Sequence record: PX670417.1
DNA: 64,000 bases
DNA from: a phage
Reading direction: 5' to 3' (one strand)
Part shown: one piece after another, positions 50,772-51,844 of the stretch
How the letters are laid out: each line of letters opens with the position of its first letter
How positions within the stretch are numbered: the first letter of the stretch is position 1
Made by a program: the position numbers and the translations under genes
Notes under the pieces: model-generated
Told to the model about the DNA's origin: nothing
Seen by the model: the letters and a program-made list of their open reading frames with translations, nothing else
The model's database searches: none

Positions 50772-50852
50772 ATTAAATCTTTTTAGAGAACTTCTAAGAA
50801 CCTAAGCAACAAGGTTCCACAACAAGCTGTAATAACCTTAGAAGCCCTCTAA

Positions 50853-50872
50853 AAAGACCTAAATTGGTCTTT
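50853..50872 (-). terminator. hairpin AAAGACC-aattta-GGTCTTT + U-run inside tRNA array (internal terminator/processing hairpin)
   Basis: 7-bp perfect stem; minus-sense followed by UUUUUAGAGG. Confidence 0.4.
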
Positions 50873-51026
50873 GCATAGTCTTGTTTAATCCGGTGACTAG
50901 AACCTTTGGAGAGCTTGATATTATCTCTTCTCCGTGACACCTACTAGGTGCTTTATCAGTGTGTACGACAATACACGAGGGATACCAAAGCAACATCCGA
51001 ATGAAGCTTGGCTTTAAATCTTATTA

Positions 51027-51116
51027 GGCGGTAAGTAAAGGAGTCGAACCCTCACCGTATCTCTACAGTGGCAACAGTTTTCAAGACTGTTTGGCTGCCA
51101 TTAGCCGCTACCTACC
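51027..51116 (-). tRNA. tRNA-Ser (TGA), type II
   Basis: Acceptor GGTAGGT/ACTTACC, anticodon stem ACAGT/ACTGT, loop CTTGAAA, long variable arm; 3' end GCC-T, CCA not fully encoded. Confidence 0.55.
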
Positions 51117-51129
51117 CCTAATAAGACTT

Positions 51130-51212
51130 TGGCATGGGACGGAGGAGTTGAACCACTTTGAAACGGTTTTGGAGGCCGTTGCTCATGCCTTAGAGTCTTA
51201 ACATCGTCCCAC
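51130..51212 (-). tRNA. tRNA-Trp (CCA), atypical (enlarged D-region)
   Basis: Anticodon region CCTCCAAAACCG resembles tRNA-Trp loop CUCCAAA; acceptor pairs; D-arm irregular, possible pseudogene. Confidence 0.4.
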
Positions 51213-51354
51213 ACTATAATTCGAAGCTTACCGTATTTTCGCAACACTGTAAAGCCCCTTCTCAGATTATTTACATGTTCTGGAAAACATGAGATACAGA
51301 CCACCTCCTTACACGGAGACCCGATAAGGTCGTCTAAGCAATCTGCTAACTATT

Positions 51355-51431
51355 TGGCACACCCTACAGGATTCGAACCTGTAACTAACGATTTAGAAGA
51401 CCGTTGCTCTATCCAATTGAACTAAGGGTGC
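51355..51431 (-). tRNA. tRNA-Arg (TCT)
   Basis: T-arm ACAGG-TTCGAAT-CCTGT, D-stem GTTC/GAGC, anticodon loop CTTCTAA, CCA. Confidence 0.65.
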
Positions 51432-51724
51432 ATTAATCTTTAAAGACTCTCTTAAAAAGCCCTTAAAGATGCCCACCTTATTAATCATACCGTGGGCGAG
51501 TACGCCAAATTCTTTGATGAGGGATTGGAAGACCTCACTGGTGTTTAGCCTATCAAGCTACTGCCAGAAAAACATTGTCGTTTGCATTTATTTTAAATTT
51601 GCAAAATAGACGCTACGCAACGAAAACTATTCAGAATATGTACAACAAATTTCCCCACATTGTGTTACGTCTAACGCTCATGTATTGGTGTTTGAATTAT
51701 ACATATGCTGAATCATTTTCAGTT

Positions 51725-51753
51725 ACTATAAAGTAGTCACATCTTAATGTCAA
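51725..51753 (-). promoter_or_regulatory. sigma70 consensus-like promoter TTGACA-17-TATAGT inside tRNA array
   Basis: Minus-strand -35 at revcomp 51748-51753 and -10 at revcomp 51725-51730; lies in a 350-nt non-coding gap. Confidence 0.55.
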
Positions 51754-51768
51754 CAACTTTATTGAAAT

Positions 51769-51844
51769 TGGTACTGGTAGGTGGAATCGAACCACCGATG
51801 TTCCCTTATCAGGGGAGTGTTATAACCTTCTTAACTATACCAGC
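51769..51844 (-). tRNA. tRNA-Ile (GAT)
   Basis: T-arm GGTGG-TTCGATT-CCACC, D-stem GTTA/TAAC, anticodon loop CTGATAA, CCA. Confidence 0.6.

Follow-up and report, generated by a model that had tools for sequence, protein, structure and literature searches.

What do the gaps in a phage tRNA array do when they hold neither open reading frames (ORFs) nor tRNA genes? The window analyzed here, a 64,000-nt stretch of a Felixounavirus (sequence record PX670417.1), carries a tRNA array on its minus strand, and ARAGORN called 25 minus-strand tRNAs in it. Three gaps (50772-51026, 51213-51354, and 51432-51768), which the sequence-only reading had described as free of ORFs and tRNAs, contain no tRNA by ARAGORN; the array and its gaps are real. 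An Rfam scan of the array yielded no Y RNA, riboswitch, or known small RNA; tRNAs aside, it returned only subthreshold tmRNA matches and chance matches to miRNA and plastid models. In relatives, the gaps are hot spots for indels and for insertions of HNH endonucleases. Our analysis indicates that the gaps are more than passive regulatory spacers and that, on the signatures described below, the gap at 51432-51768 is a gene.

This gap carries a sigma-70-type promoter on the minus strand (51725 to 51753), with a -35 hexamer TTGACA (51753-51748), a 17-nt spacer, and a -10 hexamer TATAGT (51730-51725), for which we predict a transcription start near 51718. The promoter, which had been proposed earlier, agrees with the consensus at 11 of 12 positions and ranks first among the sites in 6.5 kb. 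It is kept in all 26 related loci, where the hexamers are conserved and variation is confined to the spacer (L021 has TAAGAT), and equivalent promoters precede the homologous genes of Erwinia phage L098 and of siphoviruses swi2, C1, DS8, and MK54. As a class, promoter-like sites are not enriched in the 6.5 kb (12 found; 15.8 expected). The site thus combines the near-consensus hexamers, 17-nt spacing, and conservation in relatives that characterize an internal promoter. Given this conservation, the array is probably not transcribed solely from a single upstream start.

The other half of the proposed division into independently regulated suboperons fared less well, since no convincing terminator was found in any of the three gaps. 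A terminator scan, aimed at GC-rich stems with a following U-run, listed no minus-strand terminator-like site across 50772-51770. The hairpin with a U-run that had been suggested at 50853-50872 is present on the minus strand (AAAGACC-AAUUUA-GGUCUUU-UUAGAG), but it is weak (-8.7 kcal/mol), was not called by the scan, and shares its 3' arm with a far stronger hairpin with 26-nt arms (-37.6 kcal/mol).

What the sequence-only reading missed is that the promoter, beyond restarting a tRNA suboperon, is predicted to drive the gene for a conserved, structured RNA that takes up the 337-nt gap. We named this gene M1. It extends from 51629 to 51432 on the minus strand, and its RNA of approximately 200 nt (approximately 290 nt with an optional 5' hairpin) consists of a 5' antisense arm, a tmRNA-like template, and two pseudoknots. 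The optional element is an imperfect 92-nt hairpin between the promoter and the arm (51630 to 51721, minus strand; -22.7 kcal/mol in the window), which is present in 6 of the 26 aligned loci and precisely missing from the other 20; it may be an RNase III site or another processing element. We rejected the idea that it is a multicopy mobile element, as the window contains a single copy. In kutterviruses, an unrelated hairpin occupies the same position. The 5' end of M1 RNA would be set by the promoter or by the upstream hairpin. The 3' end would probably arise by RNase P cleavage at the adjoining tRNA-Arg(UCU) (51355-51431, minus strand; ARAGORN), whose 5' end is abutted by a 3' hairpin followed by UAAU (51432 to 51470, minus strand) that exists in two alternative versions among relatives. 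Plus-strand ORFs of 46 and 53 amino acids that are annotated in this gap in some records were rejected as coding, because the changes seen in loci L021 and L022 are compensatory in the RNA and nonsynonymous in the ORF frames. A palindrome, TTGCA-N13-TGCAA, does exist in this gap, although at 51582-51604 and not at 51572-51594 as first placed. One of its arms is the tmRNA-like resume codon region. Conservation does not extend to sister clades (TTGCA becomes TTAAA in L021 and L022).

The template of M1 resembles the messenger domain of tmRNA. An A-rich linker, UUUAAAAUAAAU (51586 to 51597, minus strand), contains an AUAA at positions -6 to -3 that is invariant across all lineages, and its U(-5) and A(-4) are the counterparts of U85 and A86 of tmRNA. 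A86 is generally known to take part in frame setting. This role is also described in one report (PMC2481249). The linker leads into a tag frame (51550 to 51585, minus strand) with a GCA resume codon (51585-51583), ten codons specifying ANDNVFLAVA, and two consecutive stops (UGA at 51555-51553 and UAG at 51552-51550). Among members of the family, the tag occurs in 20 distinct nucleotide versions, all of which have 10 codons and none of which has an internal stop. The common form is AND..(F/Y)LAVA, with D or E at position 3 and F, Y, or V at position 6. Codons 1, 2, and 10 vary at synonymous third positions only, and within the codons whose amino acid is invariant, all three variable sites are third positions. 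M1 thus presents the frame without a start codon, the alanine resume codon, the A-rich linker, the short tag with a hydrophobic ending, and the stop in helix 5 that define a tmRNA messenger domain.

The stop codons lie in the loop of a helix-5-like hairpin (51538 to 51567, minus strand), whose helices 1 and 2 are paired in 99% and 92% of cells, respectively, and show compensatory changes from GC to AU and from UA to CG. Pseudoknot A (51505 to 51537, minus strand) is formed by a stem (51537-51533/51522-51518) and by pairing of the loop (51528-51525) with 51508-51505; both-side changes occur in six of the nine pairs of these helices 3 and 4 (e.g., CCAG/CUGG, CCGA/UCGG, and CCAA/UUGG). Pseudoknot B (51471 to 51504, minus strand; helices 5 and 6) pairs CGUAC (51504-51500) with GUAUG (51490-51486) and GCCCAC (51497-51492) with GUGGGC (51476-51471); its loop, UGAUUAAUAA, is conserved, and its stems differ between lineages. 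For the structure as a whole, 95% of cells are paired, versus 26 to 44% in slid controls, compensatory changes affect 14 of the 26 pairs, and none of 500 shuffles reached the observed score. Like tmRNA, M1 therefore has H-type pseudoknots 3' of helix 5 (two, both supported by covariation), and no equivalent of PK1 was found on its sense side.

A covariance model built from 17 non-Ounavirinae members only gave a single match in the 64-kb window (51597-51466; 114.5 bits; E = 4e-23), which places the window in the same family as the copies from other virus groups; the score of E. coli ssrA under this model is just 16 bits. The tmRNA models of Rfam align to the linker and tag of the window (RF00023, 17 bits; RF04321, 22 bits), and other M1 members align independently at 27 to 29 bits. 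All these scores are below the gathering thresholds (RF00023, 17 against 47 bits; RF04321, 22 to 29 against 47 bits; RF01849, 23.7 against 50 bits). The Rfam alignments cover the messenger part only, and neither ARAGORN nor Rfam detected a tRNA-like domain in or near the gene. ARAGORN, which as a positive control called the true tmRNAs of four Lachnospiraceae, found none in the window and none in 20 other M1 loci; its one call, in swi2, is spurious in that it borrows the neighboring tRNA-Met and gives a nonsense tag. Siphovirus tRNA-like modules 3' of M1 (GUUGUGGUG...CACCACAAC) were also rejected; they have no G3:U70 and are missing from the Schitoviridae and Ounavirinae copies. In the Schitoviridae copies, a terminator lies approximately 110 nt past the second pseudoknot, and there is no T-arm. 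Inspection by eye revealed no consistent register for a helix-2-like pairing of the 5' and 3' ends of M1, and no separate acceptor piece was found upstream of M1 in the window, where the promoter and a normal tRNA-Ile are located.

The 5' arm of M1 (51598 to 51629, minus strand) is a reverse complement of host ssrA. It is antisense to ssrA nt ~54 to 107, a stretch that takes in the 3' half of PK1 and continues through the A-rich linker and the resume codon to the sixth tag codon. In the window, the decamer UAGUUUUCGU (51629-51620) is antisense to the tag codons D-E-N-Y of host ssrA, and the segment GCGUCUAUUUU is antisense to AAAAUAGUCGC around the host resume codon. The predicted duplex with E. 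coli ssrA nt 76 to 107 has an energy of -27.1 kcal/mol, and the local alignment of the arm to the reverse complement of ssrA was equaled by 1 of 1,000 shuffles. In all 12 lineages, the best predicted duplex involves one and the same segment of ssrA (-23 to -47 kcal/mol), versus weaker predicted duplexes with M1's own template (-13 to -29 kcal/mol), and in six of seven lineages at most 1 of 1,000 shuffles reached the alignment score. Extended complementarity to one site, conserved across lineages, is thus found, with E. coli ssrA as the sole host reference in all pairing tests. The short arms of the Ounavirinae and SSU5-type members have modest z-scores against mononucleotide shuffles (-1.1 to -2.5), because U-rich arms readily pair with an A-rich target. 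In Salmonella, which is among the main hosts of these phages, the ssrA tag is ANDETYALAA (PMC12493166), which leaves the decamer with at least one mismatch. The arm itself occurs in variants such as AGG/UGG/CAG/UUG-UUUUCG.

Every M1 member carries both the arm and the template. The decamer matches the host at 10 of 10 positions in the window, versus 4 of 10 for M1's own tag, and the family means are 9.3/10 for the host and 4.5/10 for the homologous site of M1 itself. The arm does not covary with M1's own divergent codons, and the template has diverged exactly at the positions where the arm pairs; the arm should therefore not silence the template of its own RNA.

In total, 658 phage records match the M1 core, and they represent at least six unrelated virus groups. 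Homologues occur in the Ounavirinae, Kuttervirus, several siphoviruses, the Schitoviridae, and SSU5- and P1-like phage-plasmids. M1 adjoins tRNA genes in every locus inspected, and in siphoviruses and Schitoviridae its own promoters and terminators are visible. Among the records listed, none has an RNA gene annotated at the match, and a few carry hypothetical-protein ORFs. M1 matches also occur in 656 of 5,426 complete E. coli genomes (approximately 12%), mostly on plasmids of approximately 95 kb, which we take to be P1-like from their size and content. The one plasmid copy that was inspected encodes the tag ANDDLMMVAA and has an arm duplex of -46 kcal/mol. In a search of 185,579 species genomes, the M1-like tag pattern was confined to prophages and plasmids of the Enterobacterales, beyond the tmRNAs of Lachnospiraceae and one coding false positive. 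We found no description of M1 RNA in the literature.

By its sequence, M1 is a chimera descended from host ssrA that joins an antisense arm to a sense messenger module of the tmRNA type. Its architecture, conservation, covariation, complementarity to E. coli ssrA, and distribution are solid. With moderate confidence, we favor the explanation that M1 base pairs with the tmRNA of the host, whose tag template is thereby blocked or replaced; most likely, annealing of the arm would put the host template out of use. Production of the RNA, its pairing with tmRNA in vivo, and the outcome of that pairing (inhibition, cleavage, or template replacement) are inferred. Against this explanation, the base of the 92-nt hairpin sequesters the first ~7 nt of the arm in the window, and the arm could instead be a relic of the inverted duplication that created the gene. 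Moreover, no route into a stalled ribosome is known for an RNA that lacks a tRNA-like domain, so simple inhibition does not account for the apparent peptide-level constraint on the tag.

A special case of the favored explanation, which we regard as rather unlikely, is that M1 acts as a "piggyback tmRNA." The ribosome would resume on the M1 frame, docked by the arm, with the host supplying the alanine-charged tRNA-like domain and SmpB, so that rescued proteins would end in ANDNVFLAVA and not in ANDENYALAA. Tentatively, M1 would then be part of a two-organism, two-piece tmRNA, i.e., a trans-acting surrogate messenger domain with which many enterobacterial phages and phage-plasmids would rewrite the host tag. 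The peptide-level constraint on the tag and its fixed 10-codon length argue for this reading, as do the retention of U(-5)A(-4), of the alanine resume codon, and of the stops in the helix 5 loop, the divergence of the template exactly at the arm-pairing sites, and the presence of arm and template in every member. Furthermore, the predicted duplex puts the 3' end of the arm opposite ssrA nt ~54 to 56, beside helix 2, so the linker and resume codon of M1 would emerge roughly at the host's position. What makes this outcome doubtful is that no tag template is known to be held on tmRNA by messenger-region base pairs alone and that a duplex of ~50 bp in place of PK1 may not fit the ribosome.

M1 shares with one-piece tmRNA (ssrA; RF00023) the UA at -5/-4 of an A-rich linker, a GCA/GCU alanine resume codon, a 10-codon tag with an AND start and a hydrophobic residue-Ala end, stops in the helix 5 loop, downstream H-type pseudoknots, and a weak but repeated covariance-model alignment. 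Unlike one-piece tmRNA, it has two pseudoknots and not four, no helix 2, a length of ~200 nt versus 363 nt, and, in addition, an antisense copy of the part of ssrA that leads up to and into the tag. It also lacks an acceptor stem, a T-arm, and G3:U70; therefore, alone it would be unable to be charged or to enter the ribosome. In the two-piece tmRNAs of alpha- and betaproteobacteria and cyanobacteria (RF01849-51 and RF04321), the messenger part can be an RNA of its own, base paired to the acceptor part, and these circularly permuted models give the best, still subthreshold, Rfam scores for several M1 members. However, a single gene gives rise to both of their pieces, of which the coding one bears the 5' acceptor strand, whereas no acceptor piece was found for M1, for which the sequence suggests the messenger region of host tmRNA as the partner.

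It is similarly improbable, in our estimation, that M1 is purely an antisense inhibitor or decoy, with an arm that blocks host tmRNA or triggers its cleavage by RNase III, a tag that is never translated, and a tmRNA-like body that merely stabilizes the RNA or soaks up tmRNA-binding factors. The long complementarity of the arm to a single ssrA site and the lack of a tRNA-like domain by ARAGORN or Rfam are consistent with such a role. Such a role leaves unexplained why codons 1, 2, and 10 vary only synonymously, why all 20 versions keep their length and are free of stops, and why the frame-setting UA is retained. Phage interference with trans-translation does have a precedent, as a tmRNA fragment of mycobacteriophage DS6A consisting of the tRNA-like domain only is reported to inhibit host tmRNA (PMC4131195 and PMC11915505). 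The tmRNAs of the mycobacteriophage Bxz1 group and Bacillus phage G and the DS6A fragment are, like M1, ssrA-derived phage genes. They are complete tmRNAs or a tRNA-like domain alone, and M1 is the converse, i.e., a messenger domain with an antisense arm. The accessible sections of these phage tmRNA surveys name no enterobacterial phage, and their pipelines drop truncated candidates (PMC4131195 and PMC11915505).

It is considerably less probable that the arm serves an intramolecular fold (e.g., one that masks M1's own resume codon until a trigger arrives) and that its ssrA match merely reflects common ancestry. When the window RNA is folded to minimum energy, part of the arm does pair with the resume region, and an antisense arm in an ssrA-derived RNA must match both M1 and ssrA. 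However, the decamer has stayed complementary to the host as M1 codons 3 to 6 drifted with no compensation in the arm, and nothing within M1 pairs with the anti-PK1 portion of the long arms. Finally, the view of the gaps as regulatory spacers that split the array into suboperons and have no product of their own is equally improbable: the internal promoter is real and conserved and hairpins abut several tRNA 5' ends, but the gaps yielded no terminator by scan, the one proposed being weak and outcompeted, a mini-ORF in one of them is not conserved (see below), and the core of the gap at 51432-51768 exceeds some tRNAs in conservation and turns up again in unrelated phages without this array.

Trans-translation, the main pathway by which bacteria rescue ribosomes and exert quality control, is known to influence the growth of some phages. 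If pairing of M1 with tmRNA takes place as we favor, trans-translation would be a common, previously unrecognized target of phage takeover, given that an antisense arm and an arm-resistant template occur together in at least six unrelated virus groups and in phage-plasmids that about a tenth of complete E. coli genomes include. The question that M1 raises is whether a tag template functions when held on tmRNA by base pairing alone. In practical terms, an unannotated M1 gene is present in hundreds of phage genomes, some of them candidates for therapy from the Felix O1, Kuttervirus, and P1-like groups. Some records call spurious ORFs across M1.

The small structured RNAs species 1 and 2 of T4 (rnaD/rnaC) are cotranscribed and processed with phage tRNAs. 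We compare them with M1 by description, as stable non-tRNA RNAs in phage tRNA clusters; we know of no reported tmRNA similarity of these T4 RNAs or antisense relation to a host RNA.

The two other gaps contain a degenerate tRNA-Trp-like gene and structured spacers; the spacers probably act in precursor processing or protein binding. In unrelated phages, no counterpart was found of these two gaps or of the Asp-Lys gap, i.e., they occur in the Ounavirinae only; the Asp-Lys gap varies little among the loci compared for covariation. A tRNA implied earlier at 51117-51212 was not called by ARAGORN and scores only 21 bits with the tRNA-Sec model of Rfam; we assign 51130 to 51212 (minus strand) to a degenerate tRNA-Trp(CCA)-like gene. 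In the window, a U.U mismatch interrupts its T-stem at a site where most relatives have a G.U pair, and its anticodon stem shows a compensatory change in L021 (ACGG/CCGU to GUAA/UUAC). The spacer at 51213 to 51354 (minus strand; 254 records, Ounavirinae only) is conserved and structured, with an exposed-looking motif, AAGGAGGUGGUCUGUAUCUC, followed by a hairpin. The AAGGAGGTG Shine-Dalgarno-like motif and 7-codon ORF put forward as a leader peptide in this spacer are present in the sequence (motif at 51310-51302, AUG at 51290, and stop at 51267, with 11 nt between motif and AUG). The AUG lies in a hairpin stem (CAUGUU/AACAUG), and Erwinia phage L098 retains the motif but has a different hairpin in place of the ORF, which argues against a leader peptide.

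The spacer at 50772 to 51026 (minus strand; z = -2.8) comprises a variable 5' hairpin, small conserved hairpins, the weak terminator-like hairpin, and a long hairpin (50862-50773), which stops 2 nt short of tRNA-Leu. The nested hairpins noted at 50789-50846 were confirmed as part of a long inverted repeat (50773-50798 with 50837-50862). Next to this spacer, tRNA-Ser(UGA) is enclosed in a 13-bp leader-trailer helix (51016 to 51129, minus strand; 51129-51117 with 51028-51016; inverted repeat I5, 92% complementary). Gap RNAs closed by long terminal stems, one of which encloses a tRNA, recall YrlA-type Y RNAs, and a Ro60 homologue (TROVE plus vWA; 53718 to 55133, minus strand) lies directly upstream of the array. 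Unlike in Ro60-Y RNA modules, no Y RNA was matched by Rfam, and M1 is also present in phage loci that show no nearby Ro60 gene; thus, Ro60 does not explain M1. The predicted model of the homologue (pLDDT, 84) matches the full-length Ro60 fold (i.e., a HEAT-repeat ring plus vWA), and its top 12 PDB matches are all Ro60/Rsr (E = 5e-8 to 2e-6).

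In the tRNA array, the gap that carries the promoter (gap 3; 51432-51768) appears to encode a widespread RNA that derives from tmRNA, carries no annotation, and is probably directed at host trans-translation. The RNA gene, M1, occupies 51629-51432 on the minus strand, with an optional 92-nt hairpin at its 5' end. The phage is Felix O1-like (Felixounavirus), and the surrounding 1.6 kb is 94 to 99% identical to many Salmonella and E. coli felixounaviruses. The array, which spans 53552 to 47991, is on the minus strand, and its RNAs therefore run from high to low coordinates. ARAGORN called 25 tRNAs in the array and none in gap 3 or in the two other gaps that had been described as tRNA free (gap 1, 50772-51026; gap 2, 51213-51354); one more tRNA (53029-53100, minus strand), missed by ARAGORN, was found by Rfam (55.4 bits). 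The promoter proposed by the sequence-only reading (TTGACA-17-TATAGT, 51753-51725) is the top sigma-70-like site in 6.5 kb, with 11 of 12 positions matched. Sigma-70-like sites as a class are not enriched in this region (12 found versus 15.8 +/- 4 expected). The promoter is credible because both hexamers are kept, with a variable spacer, in 26 distinct related loci, and we conclude that it is genuine.

The sole non-tRNA Rfam signal in gap 3 is a sub-threshold tmRNA match, the alignment of which is confident precisely over AAAAUAAAU-GCAAACGACAAUG, and other M1 members independently give sub-threshold matches to permuted tmRNA models. Read as a tmRNA, M1 comprises an A-rich linker, the resume codon GCA (51585-51583), and a tag of ten codons (ANDNVFLAVA; the E. 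coli tmRNA tag is ANDENYALAA), whose frame ends in two stops within the loop of a helix-5-like hairpin. In all 20 of its distinct nucleotide versions, this frame is ten codons long and free of internal stops. Variation is confined to synonymous third positions in codons 1 (GCA/GCU), 2 (AAC/AAU), and 10 (GCU/GCG/GCC); codon 3 is restricted to Asp or Glu and codon 6 to Phe, Tyr, or Val, and codons 4 and 5 are freely variable. The UA at positions -5/-4 is invariant and corresponds to the frame-setting U85/A86 of tmRNA (PMC2481249 for A86). At the sequence level, the M1 tag looks as if it is read.

Gap 3 (337 nt) has a core that is nearly invariant across felixounaviruses, and the core variation is compensatory (TGAGG/CCTCA becomes CAGGG/CCCTG in the related locus L022). 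A structure of helix 5 and two H-type pseudoknots was tested on an alignment of 24 diverse M1 members: 95% of the cells were paired, versus 26 to 44% with the partners slid by 1 to 3 columns, changes on both sides occurred in 14 of the 26 pairs, and the observed covariation score was reached by none of 500 shuffles. The loop-to-downstream pairing occurs as CCAG/CUGG, CCGA/UCGG, and CCAA/UUGG. When the window and other M1 loci were scanned with ARAGORN, only swi2 yielded a tmRNA call, which is spurious (i.e., an acceptor arm borrowed from the neighbouring tRNA-Met and a nonsense tag); as a control, ARAGORN correctly called four true Lachnospiraceae tmRNAs found by a scan with the M1-tag pattern. 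In the Schitoviridae, M1 ends in a rho-independent terminator about 110 nt past the second pseudoknot, with no T-arm. Downstream of M1 in the window are a hairpin and then an ordinary tRNA-Arg(UCU). M1 has the messenger domain and pseudoknots of a tmRNA but lacks the tRNA-like domain and stays below the Rfam thresholds; therefore, it does not belong among the tmRNAs. M1 is an RNA derived from tmRNA, with an antisense arm added. A covariance model built solely from 17 members outside Ounavirinae hits the window once (51597-51466; 114.5 bits; E = 4e-23) and also recovers the Erwinia, SSU5, and KPC53 copies, while E. coli ssrA, the tmRNA gene, scores 16 bits. By these scores, M1 is a distinct family, with a remote relationship to the messenger part of tmRNA.

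Conservation within M1 is highest at the 5' end, (U)AGUUUUCGU. This sequence is exactly reverse complementary to ACGAAAACUA, the stretch of the E. coli tag that encodes Asp-Glu-Asn-Tyr. Over its full length, the arm aligns with ssrA nt ~53 to 107 in reverse complement (40 of 56 columns identical in the related locus L108), with a score reached by 0 to 1 of 1,000 shuffles in six of seven lineages; the SSU5 type is weaker (72 of 1,000). In all 12 lineages, the most favourable arm-ssrA duplex predicted by RNAduplex fell on this segment, at -40 to -47 kcal/mol for arms of 43 to 53 nt (siphoviruses, Schitoviridae, and kutterviruses) and -23 to -27 kcal/mol for arms of 35 nt (Ounavirinae and SSU5-type elements), for which z-scores were modest. 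Complementarity was computed with E. coli ssrA only; since the Salmonella tag is ANDETYALAA (PMC12493166), the arm has at least one mismatch in that host. Pairing of the arm with M1's own template reached only -13 to -29 kcal/mol (RNAduplex). The first ten nucleotides of the arm (51629-51620) match the host site at a mean of 9.3 of 10 positions versus 4.5 of 10 at M1's own homologous site (15 lineages), and the -3 to -1 nucleotides of M1 are AAU, AUC, or ACU, whereas those of the host are GUC, to which the arm is complementary. Thus, the arm has kept its complementarity to the host while M1's template drifted away, the opposite of what would be expected of an intramolecular helix. Directly 5' of the arm there is always a predicted start site, a strong hairpin, or an upstream terminator (the last in the P1-like copy); in the window, this element is the 92-nt hairpin insertion, found in 6 of 26 loci. 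The constancy of this context suggests that a free 5' end matters.

In a search of 50,697 phage records, 658 matched the 201-nt core, unrelated viruses included: Kuttervirus (Ackermannviridae), siphoviruses swi2, C1, DS8, and MK54, Schitoviridae B2 and FSL SP-076, Erwinia Kolesnikvirus, and phage-plasmids SSU5 and KPC53. At the loci inspected, M1 copies adjoin tRNA genes, in stretches without an annotated gene or RNA feature. The M1-tag pattern scan of species genomes revealed copies in four Enterobacterales (Buttiauxella, Kluyvera, Pseudocitrobacter, and Pantoea) and none outside this order. Matches occur in 656 of 5,426 complete E. coli genomes, at 554 places on plasmids and 150 on chromosomes. 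Size and content led us to regard the matching E. coli plasmids, about 93 to 117 kb among those listed, as P1-like; one copy that was inspected has a score of 42 bits against the M1 model, carries the tag ANDDLMMVAA, and has an arm duplex of -46 kcal/mol with E. coli ssrA nt 56 to 106. The 2-kb unannotated M1-bearing region of Kuttervirus Cba120 (locus L029, 1795-3966) also has several tRNA-like elements with good T-arms that ARAGORN did not call. In several prophages and siphoviruses (loci L033, L051, L059, L097, L108, L099, L101, and L102), M1 is flanked by variable modules with a conserved 10-bp closing stem (GGUAAGAGCA...UGCUCUUUCC, co-varying to GGUAAUGGUA...UGCCAUUUCC); a tRNA-like element with a 7- to 9-bp stem (GUUGUGGUG...CACCACAAC) follows.

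For phages, tmRNA gene surveys report tmRNAs of mycobacteriophages and Bacillus phage G and a tRNA-like-domain-only fragment in DS6A; they discard truncated candidates and are not known to include any enterobacterial phage among phage tmRNAs (PMC4131195; PMC11915505). We found no description of M1 in the literature searched, which is absence of evidence and not proof of novelty. The architecture, conservation, covariation, complementarity, and distribution of M1 are demonstrated here. As the most likely mechanism, we propose that M1 would be transcribed from its own promoter and trimmed on both sides, at its 5' end possibly by RNase III cleavage of the hairpin and at its 3' end by RNase P at tRNA-Arg. 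It would then anneal to host tmRNA along the 3' half of pseudoknot 1, the linker, and the tag frame from the resume codon through codon 6, which should at least block use of the host tag template. Since the 3' end of the arm in the predicted duplex lies opposite ssrA nt ~54 to 56, beside helix 2, M1's 10- to 12-nt linker and resume codon would emerge about where those of the host would, and it is therefore conceivable that M1's own template replaces the host tag template. To our knowledge, template replacement of this sort is without precedent; if true, it would explain the peptide-level constraint on the M1 tag.

The sequences of gap 1, gap 2, and the Asp-Lys gap were found in Ounavirinae only (about 254 records). 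Gap 2 plus 51117-51212 contains a degenerate tRNA-Trp(CCA)-like gene, with a compensatory anticodon-stem change in the related locus L021 and, in the T-stem, a U.U mismatch in the window and G.U in most relatives; gap 2 also carries a conserved structured RNA with a Shine-Dalgarno-like motif. At 52007-52150 (minus strand), 22-nt arms with 95% complementarity surround a 100-nt structured RNA ending 4 nt before tRNA-Lys(UUU), and folding the Asp-Lys gap in full gives z = -3.3. Directly upstream of the array, 53718-55133 (minus strand) encodes a 471-aa Ro60/TROVE+vWA homologue (DUF2828 and DUF7788; PHROG 850, "RNA-binding protein"), the AF2 model of which has a pLDDT of 84; its top 12 PDB matches are without exception Ro60/Rsr, that of Thermus phage phiLo among them. 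Given this position, some of the long-stem gap RNAs could be Y-RNA-like ligands of the Ro60 homologue.

Within the array, ARAGORN gives a tRNA-??? with a 2-nt "anticodon" at 49928-50002 (minus strand); by its Rfam score (54.6 bits), this is a normal tRNA. Unlike its neighbours, tRNA-Ser(UGA) (51027-51116, minus strand) apparently has no encoded 3' CCA; it is enclosed by a 13-bp leader-trailer helix. The end of a long hairpin closely precedes each of tRNA-Leu, tRNA-Arg, and tRNA-Lys. A 144-aa ORF (53102-53536, minus strand) encodes an HNH endonuclease, and the gaps of relatives acquire HNH endonuclease genes and alternative tRNAs. In relatives, other HNH genes are inserted into gap 1 and next to the tRNA-Trp-like gene, and the tRNA at the "Ile" position is swapped. 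At 52190-52260 (minus strand), the order of elements is that expected if a tRNA-like gene were circularly permuted: first a T-arm (GAAGG-UUCGAUU-CCUUC) and the 3' strand of an acceptor stem (ACUCGGC-A), and, 3 nt further on, the matching 5' strand (GUCGAGU) and a D-arm. Rfam scores 52210-52260 as a partial tRNA match (22 bits). A 25-nt repeat (minus strand ..CAGAAGACCnnnnnCAGCAA) occurs at 52264-52288, 52354-52378, 52832-52856, and 52999-53023, the last two copies directly 3' of tRNAs, and bulged spacer helices could form between it and its partners, ACGGUCUGG near 52150-52165 and 52786-52800.

Most of the signals listed in the sequence-only reading exist but are of minor weight. On the minus strand, 50853-50872 does hold the hairpin plus U-run, which reaches only -8.7 kcal/mol and was not called by a terminator scan; the 3' arm of this hairpin is shared with a 26-nt-arm hairpin of -37.6 kcal/mol. 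The TTGCA-N13-TGCAA palindrome exists, at 51582-51604, but ten bases from where it had been placed, and it is not conserved in sister clades. The Shine-Dalgarno-like AAGGAGGTG (51310-51302) and the 7-codon ORF (51290-51267), put forward as a possible leader peptide, can both be found, but the AUG lies inside a hairpin stem (CAUGUU/AACAUG). The ORF is not conserved: Erwinia phage BoyaciRG1 keeps the motif AAGGAGGUGGUCUGUAUCUC, followed by a different hairpin without an AUG. The motif itself (51291-51310, minus strand, in the window; ~1820-1840 in the Erwinia phage locus L098) is a perfect anti-16S-3'-end sequence, conserved from Felixounavirus to Erwinia Kolesnikvirus.
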